Assembly: GCA_964653435.1 (NCBI GenBank)
Contig: CAZZFA010000008.1
Coordinates: forward strand, 15,253 to 79,252
Length of the DNA stretch: 64,000 nucleotides
Source of the DNA: an uncultured Planctomycetales bacterium
Lineage (GTDB): Bacteria; Planctomycetota; Phycisphaerae; UBA1845; PWPN01
Direction: 5' to 3'
The notes under the pieces were generated by a model. That model worked only from the letters and a program-made list of their open reading frames with translations. It had not been told where the DNA came from and searched no databases. Below are positions 16,578 to 63,222 of this stretch, piece by piece. Position numbers and translations under genes: made by a program. Each line of letters opens with the position of its first letter. Position 1 is the stretch's first letter.

Positions 16578-18071
16578 TCAGGGTTCTCGCCGAAAGATTA
16601 CCAGCGTTACGTCGTCTGGGGAAGCGGGGCATCCCCGGAAGGCATCGATCTGGCCGAGCACCGTCTCGATCTGGACGGAGGGGCATTCACCGGCCGTTGC
16701 CCGAATCGATTCTGCAAGGCGGTCTCGACCGAAGAGGACGCCATCGGACGCCGGGGTCTCGGCCAGCCCGTCGGTGAACAGATAGAGGCGGTCTCCGGGG
16801 GCGAGTCGGACCCTTCCAGTCTCCCAACTCGAGTCGGCGGAAACACCCAGCGGGAGGCCCGAACTTTCCAGCTTGTCTTTAAGGCTGCCGTGAGTATCCA
16901 AGATCAGGCCCGGTTCATGGCCGCAGTTCACGTACTCGAAGGACGAGGCCGTGGGATCATAAAGGCCCAGCAGGCCTGTCACGAAATGCTCTGCTCCCAG
17001 CAATGATTCCAAGTCGCTGTTGATCACCTGGGCAATCGCTTCGGGGCATTGCAGACCTTGGCGCACCTGCTGGCGGACTTCCGCCTTCAGTATTGCCGTC
17101 ACGAGGGCGGCGGAGAGGCCATGCCCGGAGGCGTCCGCAATTATCAGAAGCCACCGCCCATCAGCGAACTGGACAGCGTCATGGTAGTCGCCGCCCACGC
17201 TGTCGGCAGATACGTATTTTGCGTCCATACTCAGGCGGGGTATCTCGATATCTGGTGGCGGCAGCAAGTCGCGATGGATCTTTCTGGCCTTCGCCATTTC
17301 GAACTGCCGGACACGCTCGGTGTGCCCCAGGGATTCAGCCATCCGGTTAATCCCCTCGGCGAGGCGCGCCATCTCGGTGGTATGAAAGGGCTCGATGCGA
17401 ACGCCAAACCGTCCTTGTCCGATTGCCCCTACACCCGCGACAAGTCTGCCGATCGGACGACGAACCCACCGCACCAGGAGGACGTTCATAGCAGCCAGAA
17501 TCAGGGCAACCAGCACGGTCATGCCGGCGGCGCGGCTGAGGAATTGCCCGCGGATCAAACGTTGTACGGAGGCCAGAGATTGGGCGACCACGATCATTCC
17601 TCCCCCCGAGCGCGGCTCGCCTGCCATCATGAATTCCTGACCGTCATGACTGAAAAGCCTGGTTTGGCCTGGTTTGAGCGTAACCAACACTTGGTCCAGC
17701 TCATCTTCCTTGCCGGCCATCATGCTCTCGATGATCCGTCCGTTCAGATCTGTCACAACGATATGATGAGCTGGGGAGACGCTCGGCAGCATCTGTCGGC
17801 AGTAGTTTTCAATGAAGCGGTGAAAAGCCGCCGGTTCTGCGAACACCTGTTCGGCCAGGCGTACCACCTTTGCCTCCTCCTGCAGTCGCTCTGTTTGGGC
17901 CTTGAGGTGAAAGCCACGTTCGCGCCGGTAATCGACCGCCCCGAAGACTATAAGGACCAGGATCGCGATGAGATTGATCGCCAGAGCAAGGCGCAGCGAC
18001 ATGGACCCGCGCCAGGGGATGGAGACAGGGGCAGCGACGACCGGTATCGAGGCAGGCTTTGTCTTGTTCAA
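16578..18071 (-). CDS. Membrane HAMP-domain PP2C/SpoIIE-family serine phosphatase
   Basis: Two TM segments flank a periplasmic region. HAMP-like linker (RRPIGRLVAGVGAIGQGRF). C-terminal SpoIIE/PP2C block (GGDYHD..., IADASGHG..., LYLFTDGL). Confidence 0.8.
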   Translation of the reverse strand: MNKTKPASIPVVAAPVSIPWRGSMSLRLALAINLIAILVLIVFGAVDYRRERGFHLKAQTERLQEEAKVVRLAEQVFAEPAAFHRFIENYCRQMLPSVSPAHHIVVTDLNGRIIESMMAGKEDELDQVLVTLKPGQTRLFSHDGQEFMMAGEPRSGGGMIVVAQSLASVQRLIRGQFLSRAAGMTVLVALILAAMNVLLVRWVRRPIGRLVAGVGAIGQGRFGVRIEPFHTTEMARLAEGINRMAESLGHTERVRQFEMAKARKIHRDLLPPPDIEIPRLSMDAKYVSADSVGGDYHDAVQFADGRWLLIIADASGHGLSAALVTAILKAEVRQQVRQGLQCPEAIAQVINSDLESLLGAEHFVTGLLGLYDPTASSFEYVNCGHEPGLILDTHGSLKDKLESSGLPLGVSADSSWETGRVRLAPGDRLYLFTDGLAETPASDGVLFGRDRLAESIRATAGECPSVQIETVLGQIDAFRGCPASPDDVTLVIFRREP

Positions 18072-43203: not shown

Positions 43204-43461
43204 ATGAAGACAACAGATAAACGGTTCTTGGTCTATAACCTGACCGATGCGGTACTGGCTTGCCCGGAACTGCTGACCTTGGCTGAGGCGCGGAGCTTCA
43301 TCAGGAGCTTCCCGGAGAGGTTCGCTCAGCAGGGATACTACCTGACAGCAACCGGCGAGAGGATCAGGCCGGAGCTCGTCGAGTTCGACATGGTGGACGT
43401 GGGGGCAGACCCACCCCTCGGCCTCAGATCGATGGCCCAAGCAACTCATTGGGGGTGGTGA
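43204..43461 (+). CDS. Hypothetical protein (85 aa)
   Basis: GGAGG RBS. Overlaps the next gene start. No recognised family. Confidence 0.5.
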   Translation: MKTTDKRFLVYNLTDAVLACPELLTLAEARSFIRSFPERFAQQGYYLTATGERIRPELVEFDMVDVGADPPLGLRSMAQATHWGW

Positions 43462-44303
43462 AGACGAATGGCTCCCAAACACGGCAAATCATCCGGCAGG
43501 CTCTCGATGACCTGGCGGCCGCCTTGGAGGCGGGCGAGAGCGATCGCCTGCGGATTTACCTGGCCAGCATGGCCAGGTTCCATCGGTACAGCCTCGGCAA
43601 CATCTTCCTGATTCACATGCAGTGCCCGCGGGCCTCGCGAATTGCGGGTTACGGGACCTGGCAAAGACTCGGTCGGCACGTGCGGCGAGGCGAAAAGGCG
43701 ATTCGCATCCTGGCGCCTGTCGTCTGGAAGGACCCCGACGACAAGGACGACAAGGCCCACCTTGTGGCGTTCAAGACGACCTGCGTGTTCGACATCTGTC
43801 AGACGGAGGGCAAACCGCTCCCCGCCTTCGCCACCGTCGCCGGCAACCCGGGTGGCCATCTGGCGCGCCTGAAAGACTTCGTTCGGGAAAGCCGCATCTC
43901 GCTGGAATACTCAGATCGGACCGGCGCCGCCGAGGGGATGTCCCTCGGCGGCAGGATCGTGATGAAGTCCGGCCTGAAGCCGGCGGAGGAGTTCGCCGTG
44001 CTCGCGCACGAAGCCGCTCATGAACTCCTGCACGCAAAGGCGGAGTCTCGACCGGAAGAGAAAGCCGTTCGCGAGACCGAGGCAGAGGCGGTAGCCTTCG
44101 TGGTCTGCCAGGCAGTCGGGCTGGACACCAATACGGCCGCCTCCGATTACATTCAGCTTTACCAGGGAGACAAGGACACGCTGTTGGCGTCGCTGGAACG
44201 GATCCAGCGAACCGCCGCCACGATCATTCACGGCGTTTTGGACGCTGATCGGCGCGCTGATGATGAGGCGACCGACGCGATCGTGCCTCTTCCCGGGGTG
44301 TGA
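43449..44303 (+). CDS. ardC: ArdC-like antirestriction protein (ssDNA-binding N-domain plus HExxH metalloprotease domain)
   Basis: YSLGNIFLIHMQCPRASRIAGYGTWQRLGRHVRRGEKAIRILAP is the ArdC-N/DUF1738 type. C-terminal LAHEAAHELLH. Confidence 0.8.
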   Translation: MGVVKTNGSQTRQIIRQALDDLAAALEAGESDRLRIYLASMARFHRYSLGNIFLIHMQCPRASRIAGYGTWQRLGRHVRRGEKAIRILAPVVWKDPDDKDDKAHLVAFKTTCVFDICQTEGKPLPAFATVAGNPGGHLARLKDFVRESRISLEYSDRTGAAEGMSLGGRIVMKSGLKPAEEFAVLAHEAAHELLHAKAESRPEEKAVRETEAEAVAFVVCQAVGLDTNTAASDYIQLYQGDKDTLLASLERIQRTAATIIHGVLDADRRADDEATDAIVPLPGV

Positions 44304-44335: not shown

Positions 44336-44626
44336 GTGAAAAACATGCAAACACAAAAACCAGTTGCAAGATTCCGCGCAGGTCAGGTGAGCTGCGCGTT
44401 GTGGGAGAACGAGATCACCGTCGGCGGCAAGCGCCAGGTGGTGCTCAGGGCCACAGTCGACCGACGCTACAAGGATCGGGAAGGCGTCTGGAAGACCTCG
44501 CAGAGCTTCTCGCGGAACGAGATCCCGTTCGCGATCTACGTTCTGCAGAAGGCGTTTGAGTCAATGGTGAGCAAGCCGGATGAACAGGATGCGCCAGAGG
44601 TTGTCGAGGAGGAGCGGGTGATATGA
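44336..44626 (+). CDS. Hypothetical small protein (96 aa), possibly nucleic-acid binding
   Basis: ARFRAGQVSCALWENEITVGGKRQVVLRATVDRRYKDREGVWKTSQSF... with an acidic tail. Any resemblance to PC4/YdbC-like ssDNA binders is weak and unverified. Confidence 0.45.
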   Translation: MKNMQTQKPVARFRAGQVSCALWENEITVGGKRQVVLRATVDRRYKDREGVWKTSQSFSRNEIPFAIYVLQKAFESMVSKPDEQDAPEVVEEERVI

Positions 44627-44679
44627 GCGCGCCCGAGTCGCCGGCGGAAGCGCCGGGGATGCCATCCCCGGCAACCCCT

Positions 44680-45927
44680 CTATCCGCGAATCTCGAAGTT
44701 CATCCGGACGGCCTGGTAGATCTTCTCGACCAATTCCTCGGAGAGGTCGAGGGTGATCTCCCGGGTCCGGCCGTAGCGGCCGTGGGAGACGACCCGCGTG
44801 CGGGCCAACCCGTACATGTCCAACTCGTCGAGGAGATCCCCGAAGGCACGGCCGGTCATCGTGCGCATGCCGGTCCGGTCGCAGAAAGACTTGTAGGCAT
44901 CATAAGCATCGCCGGTGCCGACGGGCGCGCCCTTGGCTCGGCTCGTCGCCTCGATGACGGCAGCCATGGCGGCCTGCAACTGCACCGGGGCCGAACGAAG
45001 CAATGTGAGGTAGCGGTCCCGGTCGAGTTCCAGGGCGGCATCATCCACGAGGGCCAGGGTGAGCTTGCTTCCGGCCTTCTCGGCCAGGTACGCGCTCTTG
45101 CCCAGCAGGGCGACCGCCTGGCGGGCATCGCCGTGGTCCTGGCTGGCCATGGCCGCGATCTTCTCGACGACGCCGGGGTCCACGCTGCCGGGAGTCAGCG
45201 CCTTCTCTACGCGGATGCGGAGGATGTGCTGGAGGTCCATGGCATCGTAGGGCTTGAAGATCAGTTCGTTGAGCTTGAGGAAGGACTTTGCCCGCGGGTC
45301 CATGTGATCGGGCCAGTTCAGCTTGTTCGAGACGAAAACAAGGATCAGTTTGACCTGGATGCGCTGAGGGAGCCGACGCACGAGGAAGGTCAGGAATGCG
45401 TCGCGGTCGCGCCGGACGTTGTCCACTTCATCGACGAACAGAATCAGATAGCCTCGGTACTCGCCCAAGGCGGCCTCGATTCGGAGCATGAGCTCCTCGA
45501 GCGAGATGCCCTTCTTGTAGCGCTTGCTTGCGTTGAAAAGACACGCCAGGTCGTTGAGAGCCCGGAAGCACGGCCGCGGCGTGGACAGGTCCAAGTGCTC
45601 ATGCCGCACAGGCACGTTCTTGGCGCGGGCCATCTCCGCGAGCAGGTTCAGGAAGAAACTCAGCGTGAGTGTCTTGCCGGTTCCGGTCTTGCCCCAGATC
45701 GCCAGATGGCATGGGTGATCACCGCGCAGCACGCCGGCAAAATGGCTGCTGAGCTCCTGAATTTCGGCATCGCGGACATTTGCATTGAAGATCTCTTCCA
45801 GGACCGCCAGCTGCTCCGACCGGATGAGTTGCTCGTCATCCAGGAAGCGCCGGTCCTTGATGATTGCGTTGCCGACCATGTGCTGGATGCGGCTGGCGAT
45901 CTTGGATCGCACGGTTGTTGGTTCCAT
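44680..45927 (-). CDS. Orc1/Cdc6-type AAA+ initiator-like ATPase with C-terminal winged helix
   Basis: GGAGGTG RBS before ATG 45927. Walker A LAIWGKTGTGKT, Walker B LILFVDEVDNV, PRAKS, KPYDAMDLQHIL, HGDARQAVALL. WH domain GDLLDELDMYGLARTRVVSHGRYGRTREITL. Confidence 0.88.
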   Translation of the reverse strand: MEPTTVRSKIASRIQHMVGNAIIKDRRFLDDEQLIRSEQLAVLEEIFNANVRDAEIQELSSHFAGVLRGDHPCHLAIWGKTGTGKTLTLSFFLNLLAEMARAKNVPVRHEHLDLSTPRPCFRALNDLACLFNASKRYKKGISLEELMLRIEAALGEYRGYLILFVDEVDNVRRDRDAFLTFLVRRLPQRIQVKLILVFVSNKLNWPDHMDPRAKSFLKLNELIFKPYDAMDLQHILRIRVEKALTPGSVDPGVVEKIAAMASQDHGDARQAVALLGKSAYLAEKAGSKLTLALVDDAALELDRDRYLTLLRSAPVQLQAAMAAVIEATSRAKGAPVGTGDAYDAYKSFCDRTGMRTMTGRAFGDLLDELDMYGLARTRVVSHGRYGRTREITLDLSEELVEKIYQAVRMNFEIRG

Positions 45928-46113
45928 TGGAAAACCACCTCCAGATGTGTCCAGTGGAAGCACATGTATAAAAAGCTTTCGGCCGCCAGACGGAGTGACG
46001 TTCGAGTGGAACATCGCCGCAGGCCGCGGATGCGTCCCTTTGTTTCTGGTGTTTTTCCAGAAGGTGCCGGGGCCTGCGAGGCCCGGGGTAAGGTTTATAA
46101 ACGTCGTACCTGT

Positions 46114-46168
46114 GTAGTAGTAGTTAGTAGTAGAAAAAGAGAAGAGAAAGAGAAGAGAAAGAGAAGAG
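46114..46168 (+). repeat. (GTA)n-like tract followed by three perfect tandem 11-mers AAAGAGAAGAG on a 37-nt all-purine run
   Basis: gtagtagtagttagtagtag at 46114-46133. 11-mers at 46136-46146, 46147-46157 and 46158-46168. Lies in the intergenic region upstream of the Orc1/Cdc6 gene. Confidence 0.9.
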
Positions 46169-46289
46169 GCGCTGCAGTGGAAAACTACTCACACTGACAG
46201 CACGGGATCGATTCCCGTGATCGGTCCAGGCGGCGGTTCACCGGACAGCGAGCGAACCGCCGCAAGCGCGGTTGGCTGGAGGAAACACA

Positions 46290-48636: not shown

Positions 48637-50763
48637 TCACGCCCTGAGGTCGAGCCAGGTCAGTAGCTCGACGGGCGTGCGTGCGCTCGATCCCGCGGCC
48701 GCTATGGCCTTCTGGCAGGCGCCGACGGCCTCGGGACAGGTCGCCAGGAGGATGATCCTGTCGAAACCGGCGTTCTTGAGCTTCGTGATGTTTTCTTTGA
48801 TGTCAGATTTGCCGGTCTCGATTTCGAGGGCGACTCGCGCTCCCGGCCGCTCGGCCAGGAGATCAACAATGCCGTCGCCGGGTACGGGGTACTCGTGGGT
48901 GACCTCGTAGCCTTCGGACTCCAGATACTCGGCTGCCCGCTGAGCCCAGAACTGGTGCTGCAGGCTGGCGCGGGGGACAGTGCCGGGGTCAATGCCCATC
49001 TCGTCACACAGGGACCGGCCGTACTCCGTCAACTGGTAGAGCACGACCTGGCCGGAGCGCGTGGCGATGGTGGTGGCCTCGATGAAGCCGCCGGCGGCGA
49101 GCTGCTGCCGGACGGCGTTGCCTTTTCGTCGCGACAGATTCAGCCGCTGATATCGTGAGACGGTGGTGGACAGCGGCCTGGCCGCCACGTCGGCCAGGAA
49201 CCGGATCTCTTCCCGAGACATCTCGGGAAGAGTCTTGGGCGGTTGGCTATTTGGATCATCAGATGAATCATCTACTGGATATGGTCCGGATGAAGTCATC
49301 TGTGATTCAATGGGGGATGGTGGGTGGGGATTATTCTCTTGATATTCATCCGGGGCCGGAACGGGAGTGATCGGTGCCCATAAGGCCAGCGCGGGGCTAT
49401 TCGGTCCGGAATCACCGGAACAGGTCCCCATCCGGTCCCGAACCTGGTCATCCGAGACCGAGCCCTCTTGGATCGGAAACAACGGGACTCGGACCAGGAA
49501 GGGTTCGGGGTGTTCGTCCGCCAGGCGCACGATCGCGGTACCGATGGGCAACGTGCTGAGGGCCTCTTTCTGTTCCTCAGTCAGGTTCATGGCCCCGGCA
49601 ATGGTCTGGATGTCGCCGCGCAGCTTCTGGCTCAAGGCCAGGGTGGCATACGAGTTGGCAAAGGCGACCTTGCTCAAGAGGGATGCGGACTGATCGACAA
49701 AGACGTAACCCATGCCGTACTGGCGGATCATTCGGATTGAATTCTCCAGCACGGATTCCTTGGCTTCGGCGGCCTTCTGCAGCAGAAGGTTGTGCGCCTC
49801 CTCCAGAACGATCAGGTTGGTCAGTTTGGTTTGGGGCCCCTGGGCCAGGCGATAGCGGTACAGGTATAGCGTGAGGGCCTCCGAGAACATGGTTCGGTCG
49901 GAGTTGCTGGACAGGCCGTCCATCTCCAGGACCACGTTGTGGTTCAGCAGATCGCGGACGTGGCTGTTGTTCTGCGTGTTGACCACGGAACCGAACTCGC
50001 CATAGGTCATGGCAAGCAGGATCCTCTCGGCCGAAGCCTGCCACATGGCGGCTCGGCCTCGAAGCTTGTTGGATTGGAGCCAGATCAGAAGATCATGAAC
50101 TGTGGGCCATCGGGTCGGGTGTCCATCGAAGACGCCGGCGTCGCGGAACAGCTTGTCCAGCCCGGCGACCAGAAGGCTGATGACGCCCTCGCCGCCGAGG
50201 TAAGCGGCGGCGATGACGTCAACGATCAGCTTGATCCAGACGTTCGGCTCGCAGCCTGGCGGCGGGATCAGGGGGTTGAATCGGAAGGGAGAAACGTCCC
50301 GCCCGATGGTGTACACGTGAAGATCGGATTGGACGGCCATGAGGTCGCGGTACCCTCGCTTCCAGTCGAGGGCCAGCACGTTGATGCCGCGGGCCATGAT
50401 CCCCTTCATAAGAACGAAGGTCAGGTTGGTCTTCCCGGAGCCGCTTCGGCCGGCCACGAGGATGTGTTCTTTCAGCCTGGCGCTTTTGAGGAAGAAGGGG
50501 TAGAGCTCACGCTGGCCGTAAGAGACGTTGCCGACCTGAATGTCGCCGGCCAAGGCAAAGGTTCGCTCTGGCGGCGGGAACGGCGATCGGTCGGGCATGT
50601 AGTTCTGACCGAGATGGCGTGCGGCCAGCAGCTCGAGCATCTGCTCGATGTCGGCCTTGCCAGCTGGATCCGACTCGGACAGGTACACCGCCCAGAGTCG
50701 ATCGACTTTGGGGCCCAGGACAGGTTTGAGCTTACGACATAGTTCCTGAACACGAAGCATCAT
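48637..50763 (-). CDS. HerA/FtsK-superfamily (DUF87-like) ATPase fused to wHTH and C-terminal PD-(D/E)xK nuclease-like domain
   Basis: Walker A ILVAGRSGSGKTN and Walker B NLIVLEEAHNLL. Pro/Ser-rich linker. wHTH-like RRKGNAVRQQLAAGGFIEA...VVLYQLTEYG. Terminal GYEVTHEYPVPGDGIVDLLAERPGARVALEIETGKSD. Confidence 0.75.
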   Translation of the reverse strand: MMLRVQELCRKLKPVLGPKVDRLWAVYLSESDPAGKADIEQMLELLAARHLGQNYMPDRSPFPPPERTFALAGDIQVGNVSYGQRELYPFFLKSARLKEHILVAGRSGSGKTNLTFVLMKGIMARGINVLALDWKRGYRDLMAVQSDLHVYTIGRDVSPFRFNPLIPPPGCEPNVWIKLIVDVIAAAYLGGEGVISLLVAGLDKLFRDAGVFDGHPTRWPTVHDLLIWLQSNKLRGRAAMWQASAERILLAMTYGEFGSVVNTQNNSHVRDLLNHNVVLEMDGLSSNSDRTMFSEALTLYLYRYRLAQGPQTKLTNLIVLEEAHNLLLQKAAEAKESVLENSIRMIRQYGMGYVFVDQSASLLSKVAFANSYATLALSQKLRGDIQTIAGAMNLTEEQKEALSTLPIGTAIVRLADEHPEPFLVRVPLFPIQEGSVSDDQVRDRMGTCSGDSGPNSPALALWAPITPVPAPDEYQENNPHPPSPIESQMTSSGPYPVDDSSDDPNSQPPKTLPEMSREEIRFLADVAARPLSTTVSRYQRLNLSRRKGNAVRQQLAAGGFIEATTIATRSGQVVLYQLTEYGRSLCDEMGIDPGTVPRASLQHQFWAQRAAEYLESEGYEVTHEYPVPGDGIVDLLAERPGARVALEIETGKSDIKENITKLKNAGFDRIILLATCPEAVGACQKAIAAAGSSARTPVELLTWLDLRA

Positions 50764-53401: not shown

Positions 53402-53806
53402 ATGACATGGAGACCCAATGCATATCTATTGGAAGGCCAACTCGATAACACGCAGCCCGGCAGGATTACCGGCTGGATGCGGTTTGCGGGCCTTCCGCAG
53501 AAGGTAACCCTTGAACTGGAGGGGGATTTCGACCCGGATATCCGCGGACGGAGAATCGCTTTTCGGAATGCCTACTCCGGCAGATCTGCCGACGCCGAAG
53601 AGTACATGGACGGCTTCCAGCCGCGACAAGTCGGCAAGGTCGGCCACATCACGCTGGGCGGACCACCGCAATCCTGGACCGATTTCCCGTACATCGAGTG
53701 GATTTCGACCGAGAATGACCGTGTGGTCATGTACCTGGAGCCACACCAAGTGGCCGTGATTGATGAGTCGATCGAGGTTGTAGCCGCGGAACCTGGGCTT
53801 GGGTAG
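53402..53806 (+). CDS. Hypothetical protein, family C copy 1 (single domain)
   Basis: MTWRPNAYLLEGQLDNTQPGRITGWMRFAGLPQKV... aligns with the N-terminal ~125 aa of the 56982..57653 product, roughly half identical by eye. Confidence 0.65.
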   Translation: MTWRPNAYLLEGQLDNTQPGRITGWMRFAGLPQKVTLELEGDFDPDIRGRRIAFRNAYSGRSADAEEYMDGFQPRQVGKVGHITLGGPPQSWTDFPYIEWISTENDRVVMYLEPHQVAVIDESIEVVAAEPGLG

Positions 53807-55052: not shown

Positions 55053-55209
55053 TCCCCTCAGCTCACTCACAGGTGTCTTGAGTCAGGCCCGCTGTCCGGA
55101 TTCACGGTGGTTCCGCGCGCTCGCGTGGGCCGTGGCGCCGGCATCTGAAGAGCGACCCCATGACCCGTGTGGCATGGTGTCGCACGCATCAACCATGTTG
55201 GAGGAAACC

Positions 55210-56829
55210 ATGAGAACGATTCAAGCAACGGTCAACCCCCGGCTTCTGACCAAAGCCAATCGCCTGTTTACCGGCACGCTGCAGGGCCGGATCATCGAGA
55301 TCCTGCAGAATGCCCGCCGGGCAGGCGCTACAAGAGTCGAGATCACGAACAGCAACGGCTGGATCACTGTCCGTGATAACGGCGAAGGTATCGACGACTT
55401 CCAGCGGCTGCTCGATCTGGGCGGTTCCGGCTGGGACGATTCCCTGGAGGCAAGCGAGGATCCCGCGGGTGTGGGCCTGTTCTGCCTGGCGCCGCGCGAG
55501 GTCACCATCCGGAGCCGCGGACAGATCGCGGTGATTCATAAGGACGGCTGGACCGGCGAAGCCGTCAGGATCATCACTGATCCTGAACCATGCGAGGGAA
55601 CGGTTCTGGCGTTCCAGGATGAGCCTTGGACATCGTCCGAGGTCGATCGGAACGCCGTCTTCACCGGCATGGACGTTACCGTGGACGGCACCGCCTGTCC
55701 TCGCGAGCCATTCGCTTCGGATCAGGCCACGGCGTACCCCGATCTGGGCTGCCGCATCGAAGTCCGCGAGTACACGGACCTGCATCCCTGGCACCGTTCC
55801 TGCCACCGTGGGCACTACGGCGACAACGTCCTGGTCAACTTCCACGGCCAGGTTGTACCGTTCCACCATTGTCCGTTGAGCGAGCACCACCTGCACTTCC
55901 TGATCGACATGACCGGCGAGCCTACGGGCATCCGGCTCATGCTGCCGGCACGAACGTGCCTGGTTCAGAATGAGTCGTACCAGGCGCTGCTGGTGGCCAT
56001 GGAACTGGAAGCGTTCCGCTACCTCCAGCACCGCGGTCACCATCGACTGGCCTACAAGGAATACCTTCGGGCCCGGCAACTGGGCATCATGCTGCCGGAG
56101 GCAACACCGACGTTCCGCGTCGGGCTCCTCAGCGGCGATACGCCCGAGCCGATCGAAGTGACCAAGCCCGACAACGTGCCGTTGTCCAGCTGTTATCGCA
56201 TGAACCTGGATCCTGCCCTTGGCGATGAGACCGACGAGGCCAACGTGCACCTGCTGGCGGCATTGGGCAAGTTTGCAGAGCCCTTTGTGCCCGTGGATGT
56301 CCGCAGTGAGTACGACGGCTATTCCTGGGCCAAGCTGCCAACGGTCGACAAGGTCGAGTTTGAGGCCGGTAAGGTTATGCGGGAGTCATGGCTCTGGTCG
56401 GGGAAGATCGTGTGCGTCAAGCGGCTTCAGATCACTGCGCACACCAGCGATGGTCGAGTCTTCAGTTCGCCGGTCTGCATGGGTATCCCGCCGGTGGGCA
56501 AGTCCGAGGAGAACCGGTACCGCGAGGATACCGTTTACGTAACGCCGGAAGCCCAGGAGAGCCTGGCGCCGGCGCACATCTGGTTCCATCTGGGTGGCTG
56601 GAGCGACGACGGGGATACCTACGACACCCAGGAACATGAGTTTACCGAGAACCTCGATCGCTTCTGGGCGCTCCTGGTCGGCCCCGACGAGCAGCTTCGG
56701 CGTGATCTCATGGCGGCCGCCGATGGCATCAAACCGAGGTGGAAGGCTGTAACACTGTCCGCGAACGGCACCGTTCGGATCCGGTTCAGGAGGGGCAAGG
56801 CCAAGGTCGTTCGACCGCCTGTCTGCTGA
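55210..56829 (+). CDS. GHKL-superfamily (HATPase_c-like) ATPase with large unknown C-terminal region
   Basis: GGAGG RBS before ATG 55210. N-box IIEILQNARRAGATRVEI, G1 VRDNGEGI, G2-like DPAGVGLF. ~400 aa of unrecognised sequence follow. Confidence 0.7.
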   Translation: MRTIQATVNPRLLTKANRLFTGTLQGRIIEILQNARRAGATRVEITNSNGWITVRDNGEGIDDFQRLLDLGGSGWDDSLEASEDPAGVGLFCLAPREVTIRSRGQIAVIHKDGWTGEAVRIITDPEPCEGTVLAFQDEPWTSSEVDRNAVFTGMDVTVDGTACPREPFASDQATAYPDLGCRIEVREYTDLHPWHRSCHRGHYGDNVLVNFHGQVVPFHHCPLSEHHLHFLIDMTGEPTGIRLMLPARTCLVQNESYQALLVAMELEAFRYLQHRGHHRLAYKEYLRARQLGIMLPEATPTFRVGLLSGDTPEPIEVTKPDNVPLSSCYRMNLDPALGDETDEANVHLLAALGKFAEPFVPVDVRSEYDGYSWAKLPTVDKVEFEAGKVMRESWLWSGKIVCVKRLQITAHTSDGRVFSSPVCMGIPPVGKSEENRYREDTVYVTPEAQESLAPAHIWFHLGGWSDDGDTYDTQEHEFTENLDRFWALLVGPDEQLRRDLMAAADGIKPRWKAVTLSANGTVRIRFRRGKAKVVRPPVC

Positions 56830-56981
56830 GTATTCCCATTTACCCAGTTCATGAGATTCACCGGCGTTCCAGTGGAGATTCTGCGCGTGTGCGCGGAGCT
56901 GGAGGCCGGAGTCAGTGGCCCACGGGCACGCCCTGGGCTTGAGGCGTGCCCGCAGAGGCACCTAATCGGAGGTATCGAACC

Positions 56982-57653
56982 ATGGCATGGAGACCAACAG
57001 AGCATCTGATCGAAGGCGAACTGGACAACACCAACCCCGGCAAGGTCACGGGCTGGATGCGGTTCGCCGGCATGACCGAGAAGGTCATCTTCGACCTTCA
57101 GGGCAACTTTCACCGCGACATCCGCGGCGCCAAGATCCACCTGACCGGCGAAGGTCAGGCGGACGACCCGGAAGCGGGCTCATACATGGCCAGCTTCTCA
57201 CCCCGGCAGACCGGCGAGGTCGGCGACATCACCGCTGGATTGCCGCCTGCTGACTATGTGGCCGGCTACTGCTATGTCGAGTGGTTCTCGGAGGAGAATG
57301 GCCGCGTCGTGATTGAACTCTCACAGGACCAGGTGAAGGTCATCGGCCGGCCGATCCCGGCGTGCGAGTCCGATCCGATCTCGCGCGAGGACCAAGCGCG
57401 GAAGATGGCCGGCTTCTTGGCGGGATTAAGCCAGGCCGCCGGCGTGGTTGCGATTGCACCGGCCCAGCGGCTGGTCTCCGATCCGGCGTTCAGCCACTGG
57501 GTTGTCGTGGACGGCAAGATCGCCGGCGAAGCCCATTCGGTCGAACCCGGCGGGAACGGTCAGAGCTTCGCGTTTGTCCGGCTGTTCAACATGCCGGAAG
57601 GCGCGGAGTACGGTTGCATCGAGACGGCGTACCTTCGCTGGAAGGGCGCCTGA
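56982..57653 (+). CDS. Hypothetical protein, family C copy 2 (family C domain plus ~100-aa extension)
   Basis: GGAGG RBS. MAWRPTEHLIEGELDNTNPGKVTGWMRFAGMTEKV... is paralogous to 53402..53806. Confidence 0.65.
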   Translation: MAWRPTEHLIEGELDNTNPGKVTGWMRFAGMTEKVIFDLQGNFHRDIRGAKIHLTGEGQADDPEAGSYMASFSPRQTGEVGDITAGLPPADYVAGYCYVEWFSEENGRVVIELSQDQVKVIGRPIPACESDPISREDQARKMAGFLAGLSQAAGVVAIAPAQRLVSDPAFSHWVVVDGKIAGEAHSVEPGGNGQSFAFVRLFNMPEGAEYGCIETAYLRWKGA

Positions 57654-58006: not shown

Positions 58007-58568
58007 CGAATGGTCTGAAGTAGCCCCCCACATCATCTACGAGGCCTATCCGGATCACGACCTGCTGCCGATCGAACCCCCGCACGCCGGCGAGACCATC
58101 GGCGAGTTCTCGGCCAGGGCCGAGAATGCCGCGGACACGTTGTTCTTGTTTCTCTGCCGCGAGGCGGATGATGAGATCGATGTCCTTGAGTACTGGGCGC
58201 GACTGGATCGGGCGACTGGTGATATACAGAGCATACGGGATGCGCTCCGGGAGATCCCGTCCCCTCGATCGTCTGATCCCGGAACCGACAAGCGGGATGT
58301 GACCATCCGGCTCTCGCTTGATGCGGACTGGATCGAGCTGCTGCTGACGTACGCGGATGCGCGGGGCCGCCGATCTGGGAGCGTCGCGTCCACGCTGCAC
58401 ACATCCGAAGAGGACGCAGAAGAGTTCAACGCGGCGATGGATGCAGTTGAGTCCATGGTCCTCGGACACGCCTGCGCTGGGATCGACGTGACCGATCCCC
58501 GGTACGTCGAGGGCCTGCGCACGTGCATCGACGCGTGCGCGAACAACCTGCCGGGAGGTGATGCATGA
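57993..58568 (+). CDS. Hypothetical acidic protein (191 aa)
   Basis: GAGGAGG RBS. Overlaps both neighbours. No recognised family. Confidence 0.55.
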   Translation: MSKHSEWSEVAPHIIYEAYPDHDLLPIEPPHAGETIGEFSARAENAADTLFLFLCREADDEIDVLEYWARLDRATGDIQSIRDALREIPSPRSSDPGTDKRDVTIRLSLDADWIELLLTYADARGRRSGSVASTLHTSEEDAEEFNAAMDAVESMVLGHACAGIDVTDPRYVEGLRTCIDACANNLPGGDA

Positions 58569-58936
58569 TGATGCCCGAATACGAGTGTGACTGCTGCGGA
58601 GCCTGTTGTCGGGGTACGTTGATCGTCGAGGCGTACTACCTTGACGTGGTTCGCGAGCCCAGGCTCCTGGAGGCGGATGTGTGCGGTCGGCGTCCCACGA
58701 TGGCCGAGTTGTCTGATGACGACGGCCGGTGCATCGTGCTGGCCGCGAACCGGCCTTGCCGGTTTCTCTCCCCTGACGGTCGATGCACGATCTACCCCAC
58801 CCGCCCCAACAACTGCGTCGGCATGGAGGCGGGCGACGAGCAGTGCCAGGAGGCTAGAAGCCAACTGGACCTGCTGCCCCTCCAACCATCTCAACCCTCC
58901 CAATCGCCCGCACAGAACCCGCCACGCGTGTCCTGA
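58565..58936 (+). CDS. YkgJ-family Cys-cluster protein (CxxCxxCC, putative Zn/Fe-chelating)
   Basis: ECDCCGACCRG near the N-terminus, and PCRFLSPDGRCTIYPTRPNNC later. This is the UPF0153/YkgJ pattern. Confidence 0.7.
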   Translation: MMMPEYECDCCGACCRGTLIVEAYYLDVVREPRLLEADVCGRRPTMAELSDDDGRCIVLAANRPCRFLSPDGRCTIYPTRPNNCVGMEAGDEQCQEARSQLDLLPLQPSQPSQSPAQNPPRVS

Positions 58937-58995: not shown

Positions 58996-60084
58996 ATGTC
59001 AGACCAACTGACGTGCCCACTCTGCGCGCACAGCGCGCCGTTTACGTTGATTCCCCACCTGCGCACGGAGCACAAGATCGAACCCGAGGTGTTTCGCGTG
59101 CGCTTCCCCGAACAGCCCTTGTCCACGCCCACGTTCGGCGAGTTCCTGCGAGACCACCAGGTCCGTCGCATGAACGACATCCTGCATTACCAGCTGGATG
59201 TGGCCGGAACGCGGATGACCGCCCGGCATGGTGTGGACCACCCCCTGATCCCCGAGCCCGATCCGACGTTTGTCTGGACCGAACCCGCCCGGGATGTGGC
59301 GGAGGCGATCGAGCATAACGAGCGGGTCTTCCTCTACGGTCCGAGCGGCACGGGTAAGAGTTCGCTTGTCCGCCAGATCGCAGCGACGGTCAAACGGCCT
59401 GTCCGCCGCGTCTCGCTCAACGGCGAGACCAGCGTCGCCGACTTCATCGGCCATTGGACCGTCAACCAGAGCAAGGAGACGGTCTTCGTCAAGGGCATTC
59501 TGCCCCAAGCCATGCTGGAGGGCTACATCCTCCAGATGGATGAGGTGGATGCCATGCAACCGGAGGTCGGGTTCATCCTTCAGCAGATCCTCGAGCCGCA
59601 TGGCCATCTGCTGCTGACCGACACCGGTGACGATATCACGCCGCACGCCGACTTTCGGCTGGTGGCCACGGCCAACACGCTGGGATTCGGCTCAGACTCC
59701 GGGCTGTACGCCAGCGGCACTCACGTCCTGAACTTCTCCTGGCTGGACCGGTGGGACATTGTCGTCCACATCGACTACCTGCCCGGCGAAGATGAAGTAC
59801 GGTTGCTGCACAGCCGATTTCCGGCCGTCAAGAAGGACCTGCTCAAGTGCATGGTCAAAGCGGCCGGTGATCTGCGGCGGGCCCACGCCAACGAGGAGCT
59901 GACGACGGTCCTCACGACCCGCCGCCTCCTGGCCTTGTGCGCTCGGCTGGAACGCGGCAACGAGTTCCCACGGGCGTTGCAGGTCTGTGTGTTGAACAAG
60001 GTTCCGTCCGAGGACGTCCGCGTCATCCGCGAGACGTTCGAGCACCACGTGGGCCCCTTGGCGCAGGCCAAGACCGGCCCCTGA
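58996..60084 (+). CDS. AAA+ ATPase of the MoxR/CobS (AAA_5) type with N-terminal C2H2-like zinc finger
   Basis: CPLCAHSAPFTLIPHLRTEH. Walker A VFLYGPSGTGKSS and Walker B ILQMDEVDAM. LVATANT. Confidence 0.8.
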   Translation: MSDQLTCPLCAHSAPFTLIPHLRTEHKIEPEVFRVRFPEQPLSTPTFGEFLRDHQVRRMNDILHYQLDVAGTRMTARHGVDHPLIPEPDPTFVWTEPARDVAEAIEHNERVFLYGPSGTGKSSLVRQIAATVKRPVRRVSLNGETSVADFIGHWTVNQSKETVFVKGILPQAMLEGYILQMDEVDAMQPEVGFILQQILEPHGHLLLTDTGDDITPHADFRLVATANTLGFGSDSGLYASGTHVLNFSWLDRWDIVVHIDYLPGEDEVRLLHSRFPAVKKDLLKCMVKAAGDLRRAHANEELTTVLTTRRLLALCARLERGNEFPRALQVCVLNKVPSEDVRVIRETFEHHVGPLAQAKTGP

Positions 60085-60175
60085 ATTCGTTCTTCGTCGC
60101 AGGACAGGTCACGCTCGTCACAGCGATGCGGCGGGCGTGGCCTTTTTCTTTGCGCATCGCGGAAAGGATACGCAT

Positions 60176-62077
60176 ATGCGTGCAAACCCATTTGAAGGCC
60201 AGTTGGAACGGCTGGCCCGAACACTCACCGAGCAATTCGGCGTGAAGGTCATCTGCCAGGGTGACAACGCCTGGACCGACGGGCGGCAGATCGTCCTGCC
60301 GTCCTTGCCTGAGCCCATCAACGAGAATCTGGAGAAGATGATGGTGGGTTACTTGGATCATGAAATGGCGCATGTGGCGTTCTCGGATTTTAAGGTGGCC
60401 GAGGAGTTCGCTAAGAAGCATCCCGGCTTCGAGGGCATGCTGAATGTCGTGGAAGACGCCCTGATCGAGCAGCGGGCGATGCAACGATGGCCGGGTGTCC
60501 GCGCCAATCTGGATGCCATGTTCGCGCAGGTACGGGATCGGATCGTGCAGTTGATTGCTCAACGCGGGCCGTTCGACCGGCTTTGCACGGCGGTCTACCT
60601 GAAACTGGCCCACTACAACGATCTGATGGGGCTCGATCGTGAGCTGGCCGGATATGAGGATCTGCTGGATCGCTTCGCAGCGGTTCGGACGACCCATGAC
60701 GCCGGTGACCTGGCCGAGCAGCTTCTTGGCCGGTGGTTGAACCGCCATCCACCCAAGCCCCGGCCGTCCAGCCAAGGCCAGCGCTCAAACGGTAACCCTT
60801 CGAACACGAAAGGCGGCCCAAGCAACCCTGGCACCGATTCGGGCTTGGAACAGCAGTCCGGCGACACTGATTCAACGGAAAGCGACCCGCAAGACGGATC
60901 GGAGGCATCGGGTGACAACGCGCCGGCGGACACCCCGAATGCTCAGCAACCCGATACGGAGCCCGACCAACCAGACGCGGATGCGGCATCCGATGCCCGG
61001 CCGACCCGTGGGCCGCGGCGAACGCGCAAACGACGGCGGTGCGGTACCACAGCGCCCACCGATGATCAGGACAACCGCTCTGCCGGCGGGCAGGCCGTTG
61101 CGCCCAACGGCGGCACGCTCATCGGCGAGGCGCTGGCTGAGGCCATCGCCGAAGCGGTTGCCGGCTTGAACAACTCGGGCGAGTACCGGGCCTTTACGAA
61201 GCAGTACGATCGGATCGATGCGGTGGCCGCAGCCAACGAATCCGATGTGCAAGCCTTGTTGGCGACCGGTGTGGATGTGGTGCGCCGATTGCGGCGGGGC
61301 TTGGCCAATGCCCTGCGATCGGCCGAGAAACGCTGGTGGCGGGATGATCAGTTTCGGGGATCCTTGTCACCGCGGACCCTCTACCGATTATGCACGGACC
61401 GGCGCCTGCTGGACGTGTTCCGCATTCACTCGACGGTTCAGGGGCGATCCACTGCGGTATGTGTCGTGCTGGATGCCTCGGGCAGCATGACATCTCGCAA
61501 GATGGACGTGGCCCGTCAGGCCATGCGGGTATTGCTGGAATCGCTGGCGGACTTGAAGATCGCCACAGAGGCGTTCACATTCACGACCGGTGACCGGTTC
61601 AGCCTGGCCGAGGCCTGCAAGCTCACCGGCCATGAGCACACCCAGCTTCAGACCCGATTCAGCCGCTTCGGTAACCTGGAGATCGGGCTCATCAAGCGAT
61701 TTGAAGAGCCGGTCAAGCCTGCGCTGCGTCGCCTGCCCACCATTCGCGGAACTGGCCTCACGCCGCTGGGTGAGGCGATGCAGGTCGGCGCCTCGCGGCT
61801 CACCTCTCGGCCCGAGTCCCGCAAGATCATGCTCGTGCTCACGGACGGCCGTGCCGGTTGTGAATGTGGTGATACGGCGGCGGCGCTTCATGCCACGCAT
61901 GTTGCCGGGCTTTGTCGCAAGGCCGGCCTCGAATTGATCGGTGTCGGAATTCAAGATGACAGCCTGCGTGCGATCGTTGCGGATACGATCGTGATTCACG
62001 CACTGGCGGAACTTCCGGCTCAGCTCTGCAAGCTGCTGGGCCGCACATTGAAAAAGGGAGTATGCCGTGTTGGATAA
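60176..62077 (+). CDS. VWA-domain protein with N-terminal HExxH putative metallopeptidase domain and acidic disordered linker (CobT/DUF2201-like partner of the AAA+)
   Basis: AWTDGRQIVLPS...YLDHEMAHVAF. ~130-aa Asp/Ser/Pro/Gly-rich linker. MIDAS-type VVLDASGSM and LVLTDGRAG. Confidence 0.78.
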   Translation: MRANPFEGQLERLARTLTEQFGVKVICQGDNAWTDGRQIVLPSLPEPINENLEKMMVGYLDHEMAHVAFSDFKVAEEFAKKHPGFEGMLNVVEDALIEQRAMQRWPGVRANLDAMFAQVRDRIVQLIAQRGPFDRLCTAVYLKLAHYNDLMGLDRELAGYEDLLDRFAAVRTTHDAGDLAEQLLGRWLNRHPPKPRPSSQGQRSNGNPSNTKGGPSNPGTDSGLEQQSGDTDSTESDPQDGSEASGDNAPADTPNAQQPDTEPDQPDADAASDARPTRGPRRTRKRRRCGTTAPTDDQDNRSAGGQAVAPNGGTLIGEALAEAIAEAVAGLNNSGEYRAFTKQYDRIDAVAAANESDVQALLATGVDVVRRLRRGLANALRSAEKRWWRDDQFRGSLSPRTLYRLCTDRRLLDVFRIHSTVQGRSTAVCVVLDASGSMTSRKMDVARQAMRVLLESLADLKIATEAFTFTTGDRFSLAEACKLTGHEHTQLQTRFSRFGNLEIGLIKRFEEPVKPALRRLPTIRGTGLTPLGEAMQVGASRLTSRPESRKIMLVLTDGRAGCECGDTAAALHATHVAGLCRKAGLELIGVGIQDDSLRAIVADTIVIHALAELPAQLCKLLGRTLKKGVCRVG

Positions 62078-62669
62078 GAAGCTGAATCTGATGCTGGAGA
62101 CCGCGGCCGCACTGACCGCAGATGATCTCGATTGCCTTCGGGGCGTCGCGTTTGGCGCAGCGACGGAGTTGCCCGATGAGGAAAACGAGGTGGCAACGCC
62201 AACCTCCCCGGACGTCGCTGAAGAGTCCTCTTCAGACGACCACGCTGAGGCAGACGGAGCGCCACCGTCACGCCAAGCCCCGCGGAACGCTCAAGCCGTT
62301 AACCGCCGGCGTGCTGCTGCGCCCTCGTCAGGTGTGTCGGCAGGCGAGTACGAACGTCAGCGGACTCGCGAGTCGAAGGTTTCGACGGCCTGCATCGGTC
62401 ATGAACGCGAGAAGCATGACTGGTGGCCGATCGGCACGACGCTTGTCGGCCAGATCGGCTCCGAGACCTTTACCGCGACCGTGGTGGAGAACACAAGCGT
62501 CAAGAGCAACCGGAGCCTGCTGATCACATCAGGCGCCGCGAGCGGACGCGTCTGCATCACGCCCACGCGGGCGGCGATGGAAGCCACGGAAGCCTATCGT
62601 CAGGCCCACAACCTCGGTCGAGGGGGTGGTGTCACGAACGGATGGGAGTTTTGGAAAGCGCAAGCGTGA
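62067..62669 (+). CDS. Hypothetical protein (200 aa) with acidic disordered N-half
   Basis: GTG start after AAGGGAG. The C-terminal ...ITPTRAAMEATEAYRQAHNLGRGGGVTNGWEFWK loosely resembles the SPSxAA...NGWxxWK motif of DUF4357-type domains. Unverified. Confidence 0.5.
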   Translation: MLDKKLNLMLETAAALTADDLDCLRGVAFGAATELPDEENEVATPTSPDVAEESSSDDHAEADGAPPSRQAPRNAQAVNRRRAAAPSSGVSAGEYERQRTRESKVSTACIGHEREKHDWWPIGTTLVGQIGSETFTATVVENTSVKSNRSLLITSGAASGRVCITPTRAAMEATEAYRQAHNLGRGGGVTNGWEFWKAQA

Positions 62670-62925
62670 GCCTGCGTGTCCTTCCTCTCCTCTTCTCACA
62701 TCTTTCTCCTGCGCCCAAGCCTTGGGCGCATTTTTCCCCCTGAGCCAGCGACAGCTCCGTTCGACGCGGGTCCCGCGGGACATCATGACACAAACACATG
62801 AGCGTAAGTGTGCGCTGGCGCGCCACTTATGGGCTGTCGCAGAATTCCTGCGGGAAACCACTTGCGCCCTGCCCCGCTGTGCGCTATGTTGGATATGAAG
62901 TCTGTGACTCGAAAGGAGGTTTCGC

Positions 62926-63222
62926 ATGACTCTCGGAATTCGAAAACTGATCGTTCTGTCATTGGTTGCCAGCGTGTTCCTCCTCGGGAACCTGTGGTTG
63001 GTCGTGGGCTGGCTCCAGAATCACGGCGTCATCGACGGAGCCCGTTACGTGCGGGCGGAGTACCTGACCGGTACGGCCATCACGATTATCGTCGTGCTGC
63101 TGATTCTGCTGGCTCGTTCGAACGCAGAGCGGCCGGCATGGTTACGCCGGTGCTCTGTTTGCGATCACGTGCTGGTCACGCGAGGCCGGTACTGCGCCGA
63201 TTGCGGCAGCAAGGTAAGCTGA
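62926..63222 (+). CDS. Small membrane protein with C-terminal zinc ribbon
   Basis: AAAGGAGG RBS. Two TM segments, then CSVCDHVLVTRGRYCADCG. Confidence 0.6.
   Translation: MTLGIRKLIVLSLVASVFLLGNLWLVVGWLQNHGVIDGARYVRAEYLTGTAITIIVVLLILLARSNAERPAWLRRCSVCDHVLVTRGRYCADCGSKVS

Follow-up and report, generated by a model that had tools for sequence, protein, structure and literature searches.

We analyzed a stretch of 64,000 nucleotides (nt; hereafter the window) from an uncultured Planctomycetales bacterium of the Phycisphaerae (contig CAZZFA010000008.1), focusing on two plus-strand genes that a preliminary description, made from the sequence alone, had likened to the CobS/CobT or MoxR/VWA chaperone pairs. 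The upstream gene (58996..60084), assigned from the open reading frame (ORF) list and from Pfam, NCBIfam, PHROG and solved CobS matches, encodes a CobS-like, MoxR-type AAA+ ATPase of 362 amino acids (aa) with the Walker A motif GPSGTGKS (aa 115-122; 59338..59361) and the Walker B motif MDEVD (aa 181-185; 59536..59550). A C2H2-like zinc finger of the form C-x2-C-x10-H-x4-H occupies its aa 7-26 (59014..59073), where the sequence CPLCAHSAPFTLIPHLRTEH corresponds to CPLC-x10-H-x4-H. The downstream gene encodes a CobT-like adaptor. As listed, its ORF extends from a GTG at 60137 to 62077 (646 aa); the start found in all database homologues is the ATG at 60176, 13 codons inside that frame, and the Shine-Dalgarno-like sequence GGAAAGGA lies upstream of this ATG. 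From the ORF list, the profile matches and the homologue starts, the adaptor gene is placed at 60176..62077, giving a protein of 633 aa (P0001).

The adaptor consists of a zincin-like N-domain, a linker, a shaft and a VWA domain. The N-domain (60176..60745) is homologous to CobT_N and is laid out as a helix, two strands and further helices, as judged from PF06213, the AlphaFold2 (AF2) model and Foldseek. It contains the sequence TDGRQIVLP (aa 34-42), the HExxH motif HEMAH (aa 62-66; 60359..60373) within a predicted helix at aa 50-69, and, in the next long helix, VEDALIE (60449..60469) with the conserved residues E93, D94 and E98, which are candidates for a third metal ligand. The linker that follows (aa 191-330; 60746..61165) is of low complexity and, from its composition, probably disordered. 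It comprises about 140 aa, is rich in A, P, G, D, S and T, and varies in sequence across the family; the equivalent linker of CobT, of about 90 aa, is disordered (10.64898/2026.07.21.739949). The preliminary description had called this linker acidic. A low-complexity linker is indeed present, but it is only mildly acidic (D+E 16%, K+R 10%) and includes a basic RPTRGPRRTRKRRR patch. The segment equivalent to the CobT "shaft" (aa 384-425; 61325..61450) aligns to CobT residues of about 373-414, and its sequence RRLRRGL.NALRSAEKRWW is nearly invariant across the adaptor family. The VWA domain (61457..62074), delimited by the VWA and CobT_C profiles, carries the MIDAS (metal ion-dependent adhesion site) motif DASGS (aa 433-437; 61472-61486).

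Family assignment and conservation of the HExxH motif

The matches of both proteins to profiles and solved structures were strong, and the sequence features of the pair are therefore not due to chance. In Pfam, the ATPase matched AAA_5 (1.9e-21) and, weakly, CbbQ_C (aa 277-336), and the adaptor matched CobT_C (1.8e-13), the CobT N-domain (7.8e-10) and VWA (9.1e-10). The NCBIfam E-values were 3.9e-41 for CobS (ATPase) and 2.9e-17 for CobT (adaptor). Solved CobS (9ujv_A) matched the ATPase at 3.1e-41, and solved CobT (9uka_G) matched the adaptor at 8.7e-11, a value that improved to 2.1e-20 with the adaptor family profile. The best-scoring profiles of both proteins were phage families, namely, PHROG 249 for the ATPase (4.9e-55, 188 bits) and PHROG 1576 for the adaptor (4.7e-59, 202 bits); the latter protein also matched PHROG 459, annotated "peptidase", at 5e-6. 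More distant relatives of the ATPase were NorQ (7e-16) and CbbQ (1e-10), and NorD matched the adaptor family profile weakly (0.011-0.28). As in MoxR-type pairs, an AAA_5 ATPase with Walker A and B motifs adjoins a VWA protein with a DxSxS MIDAS, and the resemblance originally proposed is thus borne out. The pair likewise shows the features of the CobS/CobT-like pairs of mobile elements, with both PHROG matches and with an HExxH-containing, CobT_N-like protein bearing a MIDAS VWA domain beside an AAA_5 ATPase on a mobile element. We are highly confident that the two genes are such a mobile-element CobST-like pair and not a chelatase.

The scores against the cobaltochelatase equivalog models were 141.3 bits for the ATPase (TIGR01650, CobS; cut-off 558.55) and 62.6 bits for the adaptor (TIGR01651, CobT; cut-off 759.05), both below the cut-offs. 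As genuine references, we used three cobS-cobT pairs from Rhizobium, Cereibacter and Pandoraea replicons. The ATPase was 31-33% identical to the genuine CobS proteins, which share 67-76% among themselves, and the adaptor was 18-19% identical to genuine CobT, for which the corresponding range was 47-53%. The pair formed, with other Phycisphaerae sequences, a separate deep branch apart from the genuine chelatase subunits. In addition, no CobN-like or cob-related ORF was found in the window when 30 ORFs outside the block of the pair, including all ORFs of at least 900 aa, were scanned against Pfam, in agreement with the preliminary description, which had placed the pair outside any cobalamin context. 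Since the pair does not cluster with chelatase subunits, scores below their cut-offs, lacks a cobalamin context and has a constrained HExxH motif, a remodelling or protease device is the better reading, as had been proposed; within that reading, protease activity is what the motif predicts.

The HExxH region had been taken for an added metallopeptidase module. The isolated N-domain (aa 1-195) matched Pfam CobT (PF06213) at 5.4e-11 and is hence homologous to the canonical CobT N-domain; the latter is likened to peptidase M48C in a 2026 preprint on Brucella CobSTN (10.64898/2026.07.21.739949). The domain is therefore not an addition; what differs is the motif, intact in the adaptor and degenerate in genuine CobT. 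Neither DUF2201_N, which had been suggested as a possible match, nor Peptidase_M48 was detected in Pfam with this domain even at E-values up to 10. In an alignment of the N-domains, H62, E63 and H66 were invariant in 20 adaptor family members, and HExxH was kept in all five phage and plasmid relatives but in none of the three genuine CobT sequences. At this position, the Phycisphaerae family reads DHE[MLS][AG]H, and the relatives read HEAAH (IncC plasmid), HETGH (Rhodanobacter plasmid), HEAGH (Roseobacter phage CRP-810) and HEVAH (SSU5 phage-plasmid), as opposed to DSMALR, DAFALR and DAAALQ in genuine CobT. Both glutamates of the VEDxxxE helix (E93 and E98) were common to all aligned sequences, genuine CobT included.

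A HMMER scan with the N-domain profile retrieved 3149 clusters (50% identity) at E-values of 1e-3 or below, and the motifs were counted in the 86 full-length proteins within the top 150 clusters. HExxH was present in 83 of these 86 representatives, the exceptions being one HQxxH, one HEVAE and one truncated protein, and the DxSxS MIDAS was present in all 86. The acidic residues were similarly conserved (D94 in 85/85, E93 in 83/85 and E98 in 80/85). The AF2 model of the N-domain (predicted local distance difference test score [pLDDT], 81.6) consists of a helix, two strands, the HExxH helix 50-69 and a helix 86-104 containing the conserved acidic residues, a layout that, in this model, appears zincin-like. 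Foldseek searches of BFVD returned many phage CobT/VWFA N-domains (TMq 0.6-0.77, E down to 4.5e-7). In the Protein Data Bank (PDB), the top matches were the gluzincins selecase, jannalysin, ERAP1 and M61, but all matches were weak (E of 1 or above), including those to minigluzincins; neither solved CobT nor a significant peptidase match was returned. The adaptor thus combines an HExxH motif within a predicted helix with a downstream acidic candidate ligand, as in zincins and gluzincins, and this combination is conserved across the family. Judging from the alignments, strong purifying selection maintains a catalytic-type signature in the mobile-element branch, the chelatase branch has lost it, and the adaptor may be an active protease. 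This explicit contrast between an intact HExxH in mobile-element adaptors and its loss in genuine CobT is new.

The finger on the ATPase, which the preliminary description had also pointed out, is supported by the invariance of C7, C10, H21 and H26 in 23 related Phycisphaerae loci. The first 50 residues, finger included, were missing in only one genome, seen twice as loci L002 and L016. Because aa 74-350 of the ATPase align to aa 29-312 of CobS, the stretch that holds the finger is a genuine extension at the N-terminus relative to CobS, about 45 aa long. Pfam matches were below threshold (zf-Di19, E 0.027; Zn_ribbon_Brz, 0.081), and the C-H spacing is 10. From the invariance of its ligands the finger is probably real; it may serve in binding nucleic acid or protein. 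Together with the third gene described below, it is a new element of the Planctomycete clade. The AAA+ partner in SSU5 (locus L044, 4785-6020) has at its N-terminus CKWCGKSFHYLKSH, another CxxC...H...H motif ahead of the AAA+ core, for which BLASTP gave no alignment with the finger of the window. Zinc-knuckle N-extensions may be recurring in mobile CobS-like ATPases.

Third gene and mobile-element setting

A third gene (62067..62669, +; 200 aa) overlaps the adaptor stop by 11 nt and has its own Shine-Dalgarno-like site. It was detected 3' of the adaptor gene in 30 related loci. In about 30 loci, the three genes thus form a conserved unit whose stop and start codons overlap. The third gene was found only with the Phycisphaerae clade of the pair, and this lineage-specific coupling is likewise new. 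Among 363 homologues of the encoded protein, none has a Pfam domain, and the few named ones come from metagenome-assembled genomes (MAGs) of Phycisphaerae or Sedimentisphaerales. In the protein, a variable linker connects an N-terminal helical segment, which is short and conserved, to a C-domain (aa 87-200) that is highly conserved (68-77% identity). AF2 modelled the C-domain with a pLDDT above 90 as a small beta-barrel with helices; its fold matches were weak and SH3/KOW/Tudor-like. No Pfam, NCBIfam or PHROG family matched the protein, and comparison with Vcrx090, its Rhodanobacter counterpart and DUF3150 by hhalign gave a probability of about 0.1%, indicating that they are unrelated. A likeness to DUF2924/RAMA-type domains was supported by no tool, and we discarded it. 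In locus L008, the C-terminal domain occurs a second time (17169-17498; 75% identical), some 6 kb further downstream. A hairpin scan tentatively identified a terminator-like hairpin with a T-run (62710..62740, +) 41 nt 3' of the third gene. Of the related loci checked, L018 alone has it too, and the region of the pair shows no enrichment of terminator-like sites.

The family context was taken from the homologue loci. All named adaptor homologues belong to the Phycisphaerae or Planctomycetota, and a scan of one genome per species yielded 34 loci, all of which, except for two short contigs, are from Planctomycetota MAGs. The two contigs (L029 and L034) contain close homologues, with 68% and 54% best-segment identity to the window adaptor, respectively, and were binned as Pseudomonadota and Methylococcaceae MAGs; they reflect either a binning error or transfer outside the Planctomycetota. 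Three MAG assemblies contain 2 to 4 copies of the pair each. When the genes of the window were compared by tblastn with the related loci, a recurring order emerged, namely, a HATPase_c-like gene, small genes, a CxxCxxCC gene, the AAA+ gene, the adaptor gene and the third gene, followed by an ArdC-like gene or a homologue of ORF 62926-63222. An ArdC-like gene follows the three-gene unit in L019, L024 and L031. In other loci, the neighbours of the three genes are a tyrosine integrase, a serine recombinase and ParB, or else a DUF87/TraG-like ATPase.

Several neighbours in the window belong to this conserved setting. The HATPase_c-like (GHKL ATPase) gene (55207..56829, +; 540 aa; HATPase_c 4.5e-4, a weak match) lies just upstream of the pair in 14 related loci and may be functionally linked to it. 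Directly upstream of the pair is a small CxxCxxCC gene of the YkgJ type (58565..58936, +; PF03692, 6.4e-7), a synteny neighbour only, seen in 6 loci. ORFs 53402-53806 and 56946-57653 (+) match the same targets in related loci and are thus paralogues within the element. In L019 (2927-10001), L008 (5312-8965) and L036 (3423-10001), cargo genes on the reverse strand, 3.5-7 kb in all, separate the AAA+ gene from the adaptor gene, and L031 has a similar gap. The cargo encodes secreted or surface proteins, namely, an Ig-repeat amidase, a C25 peptidase that has a beta-helix and an RHS-repeat toxin. The site between the two genes looks like an insertion hotspot.

The remainder of the window falls into three parts. 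From position 1 to about 31 kb, there is a copper/heavy-metal resistance block (184-31224), which includes two efflux sets of the OEP/HlyD/AcrB(CusA) type (HMBD domains occur in the second), an HMA-domain P-type ATPase, a multicopper oxidase with a TAT signal, and YHS/TRASH-domain proteins. Ordinary-looking genes (radical SAM, BNR and GH127) at about 32 to 41 kb separate it from the element genes, a block of mostly unannotated genes from about 42 kb that includes ArdC-like and VirB4/HerA-like genes. The ArdC-like gene (43449-44303, +) encodes an N-terminal ArdcN domain (2.2e-10) and a C-terminal HExxH motif in the sequence LAHEAAHELLH, and its product is a second putative zincin of the block. 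A 708-aa ATPase (48637-50763, -) with DUF87/HerA_C domains and weak matches to CedD, TraC and VirB4, found near the pair in 7 loci, is probably the DNA-translocation or transfer ATPase of the element. By eye, the translation of ORF 44680-46014 (-) has the look of an Orc1/Cdc6-type AAA ATPase (GKTGTGKT, FVDEVD); the overlapping plus-strand ORF of 524 aa (44623-46197) is probably spurious. Taken together, the pair probably sits on an integrative, and probably conjugative, element of a Phycisphaerae (Planctomycetota) bacterium.

Beyond the Planctomycetota, tblastn detected adaptor homologues on at least 1839 plasmid records, mostly from Klebsiella, Escherichia, Acinetobacter and Salmonella, and on 34 phage records, among them SSU5-like phage-plasmids, Rhizobium phages and CRP-810. 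The gene order on IncC plasmids is AAA ATPase, hypothetical, bet, exo, DUF3150 and VWA, and on the Rhodanobacter plasmid, AAA, hypothetical, DUF3150 and VWA are contiguous. In SSU5 (L044), the pair is flanked by genes for DNA ligase and DNA polymerase. In two metagenomic phage-like loci (L046 and L047), genes for DNA ligase and a histone-deacetylase-like protein precede the pair, and L046 has a gene for the DNA polymerase III alpha subunit downstream. A link to replication modules is therefore a recurring one.

Proposed function and alternative explanations

By homology with CobSTN, the AAA+ protein would form a hexameric ring. The N-domain of the adaptor would dock on the small AAA+ subdomain, and the shaft-equivalent segment (aa 384-425) would enter the pore of the ring; in the Brucella complex, CobT_N binds the small subdomain of CobS, and the "shaft" before the VWA domain inserts into the CobS ring (10.64898/2026.07.21.739949). 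The MIDAS face of the VWA domain would hold a client protein. For CobT, the side opposite the CobS ring binds CobN, domain VI of which is very close to the MIDAS (10.64898/2026.07.21.739949). ATP hydrolysis would then be coupled to remodelling and to cleavage of the captured client, of the adaptor itself or of the third protein. Cleavage is predicted because the zincin signature HExxH...ED...E is intact, whereas the N-domain of genuine CobT is catalytically dead.

The nearest studied homologue of the ATPase is Vcrx089 of IncC plasmids (tblastn 3e-30, about 30% identity over 289 aa). Vcrx089, an AAA_5 and CbbQ_C protein, relieves type I restriction together with Vcrx090, acting in the recipient cell; the phenotype is gone in an hsdR mutant and thus depends on recipient restriction, and its authors called the mechanism novel and its characterization ongoing (Roy et al. 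2020, PMC7498323). In a 2024 study, restriction by EcoKI/EcoBI became 400- to 900-fold stronger once vcrx089-090 was deleted (PMC11602122). A MoxR-vWA pair of jumbo phages, whose vWA protein carries a metallopeptidase fused at the N-terminus, was proposed to act in virion assembly and processing (Iyer et al. 2021, PMC7824862). Our literature search found nothing useful on DUF3150 or on CobS/CobT with ArdC, and no test of the role of the adaptor or of its HExxH site. Given the ArdC neighbour, the position of the pair in the backbone of a mobile element and the precedent of Vcrx089, establishment of the element or evasion of host defence is its most likely role. We lean, cautiously, toward an ATP-driven motor-adaptor-protease that serves these ends, in particular anti-restriction.

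Several observations weigh against this proposal. The anti-restriction data are for Vcrx089 and Vcrx090 and do not extend to the VWA gene, which the transposon sequencing (TnSeq) screen on IncC did not flag (PMC7498323), and the identity to Vcrx089 is only about 30%. Neither Vcrx090 nor DUF3150 had a tblastn match in the window, and the PADLOC models matched neither the adaptor nor the third protein, in a search that included no anti-defence library. The replication-gene setting in SSU5 and the two phage-like loci fits DNA metabolism or host takeover equally well. Furthermore, proteolysis, zinc binding and complex formation are, for the clade of the window, predicted rather than observed.

This setting bears directly on the possibility that the pair is a remodeller that serves replication or DNA metabolism of the element and has no relation to defence; it might, for example, load, unload or degrade a factor for replication or repair, from the host or from the element. 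The ligase and polymerase genes around the phage pairs speak for it, as do the interleaving of the IncC pair with bet and exo, the Orc1/Cdc6-like ORF recognized by eye, and a finger that could bind nucleic acid; the restriction-dependent phenotype of Vcrx089, abolished in the hsdR mutant (PMC7498323), speaks against it, and we consider such a role unlikely. A little less probable still is that the pair is defence cargo, that is, a MoxR-vWA sensor-effector as in ternary NTP-dependent conflict systems with the zincin as effector. MoxR-vWA modules do occur in conflict systems (PMC7159879), defence cargo is frequent on mobile elements, one homologue has AbiE nearby, and the ATPase matched bpMoxR at 2.6e-4. 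That match, of 20.6 bits, was nevertheless below the cut-off of 27, and the PADLOC matches of the ATPase were weak and of a generic AAA type. In addition, the place of the pair is constant and belongs to the element's conserved backbone synteny and not to variable cargo, and the IncC homologue acts against host defence and not for it (PMC7498323, PMC11602122). We regard as improbable, to a slightly greater degree, a chaperone-protease for assembly of a prophage virion or particle, in which the MoxR-vWA pair would fold structural proteins and process them; Iyer et al. suggested this for jumbo phages of group 2.2. The architecture is the same in those phages (PMC7824862), the best profiles are PHROGs and the fold of the N-domain resembles that of many phage proteins; yet five neighbouring genes gave a single marginal PHROG match, of unknown function, and no structural protein. 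The neighbours are instead ArdC-like and VirB4/HerA-like, conjugative plasmids that form no virions, IncC among them, commonly carry the family, and the published work on IncC suggests that the function is exerted in the recipient cell (PMC7498323).

Two explanations invoke metals. A metal-insertion chaperone like NorQ/NorD or CbbQ/CbbO, with HExxH as a metal-handling site and not a protease, would account for the detectable relationship of the ATPase to NorQ and CbbQ, and for the weak one of the adaptor to NorD, and the window does contain metal-resistance genes. These genes, however, are more than 27 kb away, with glycosidase and radical-SAM genes in between, no candidate client enzyme is conserved beside the pair, and the phage and plasmid distribution fits poorly, so that this explanation is very improbable. 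A genuine aerobic cobaltochelatase, with CobN encoded elsewhere in the genome, is close to refuted. CobS and CobT are the best named matches in Pfam and NCBIfam, the domain order is that of solved CobT and some sources label homologues "cobaltochelatase CobT", but the scores are 4- to 12-fold under the equivalog cut-offs and the identity to genuine CobS/CobT is low. HExxH, lost in genuine CobT, is kept here, no cob gene was found among the ORFs scanned in the 64 kb, some MAGs have 2-4 copies beside integrases, recombinases and ArdC, and the closest profiles are phage families.

Extending the motor-adaptor-protease proposal beyond this clade, mobile CobS/CobT-like pairs, including those of Planctomycete integrative elements, IncC plasmids and SSU5-type phage-plasmids, might constitute one widespread class of ATP-driven, MIDAS-targeted zincin proteases that capture host defence proteins, e.g., type I restriction complexes, and destroy or disassemble them on entry. 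CobT would then be a relative with a dead peptidase domain, and a zinc-finger targeting module and a beta-barrel partner of its own would be the additions made by the Phycisphaerae clade. We put this forward as a speculative generalization that is rather doubtful as a whole. If the adaptor is an active protease steered by the AAA+ motor, this would explain how an anti-defence function works that occurs on at least 1839 plasmid records, IncC multidrug-resistance plasmids included, and the chelatase and mobile-element adaptors would have diverged from a common peptidase-bearing form. Phage and plasmid genes annotated "cobS/cobT" or "porphyrin biosynthesis" are routinely counted as B12 auxiliary metabolic genes, and the locus and its relatives argue against this practice.

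Comparison with known systems

The aerobic cobaltochelatase CobS-CobT (solved in 9ujv, 9uka and others) has the same domain order in both subunits, and its CobT N-domain, shaft, VWA domain and MIDAS are homologous to those of the window adaptor; by analogy, the motor-adaptor geometry is probably common to both. The differences are the intact HExxH of the window adaptor, replaced by D-S-M-A-L-R or similar in genuine CobT, and the extra finger of the ATPase, the mobile-element setting and the absence of CobN from the window. NorQ/NorD, CbbQ/CbbO and RavA/ViaA have in common with the window pair an AAA_5 motor, which in the window shows a weak CbbQ_C-like match in the small subdomain, and an adjoining MIDAS VWA adaptor. 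However, a CobT_N-like HExxH domain is not seen in their adaptors, their clients are metabolic enzymes, and the similarity of NorQ/NorD to the window pair is much weaker than that of CobS/CobT.

In the hde locus of IncC and SXT-R391 elements, the AAA+ and VWA proteins are homologous to those of the window, the VWA proteins of both have HExxH and MIDAS, and in both cases the backbone is that of a conjugative element, a probable one in the window, with other anti-restriction functions (ArdC in the window). In contrast to the hde locus, the window is without homologues of Vcrx090, DUF3150, ssb, bet and exo, and its AAA and VWA genes are adjacent.

The pairs called "CobS/CobT-like" or "porphyrin biosynthesis protein" on phages and plasmids, such as SSU5 gp49/gp50, CRP-810 gp06/gp07 and the jumbo-phage pair of Iyer et al., agree with the window pair in that a CobS-like AAA_5 ATPase adjoins a protein whose linker joins a CobT_N-like HExxH domain to a MIDAS VWA domain, in their mobile carriage and in the fold of the N-domain. 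The architecture has thus been described before, and the locus of the window is a lineage-specific Planctomycete clade of this family; what the window itself contributes is modest, although the clade is new. Its members differ from the phage and plasmid pairs, to which the window pair is only 21-29% identical, in the finger of the ATPase, the coupled third gene and the Planctomycetota host, and the element that carries the window pair looks integrative or conjugative and, unlike the phage pairs, not viral.

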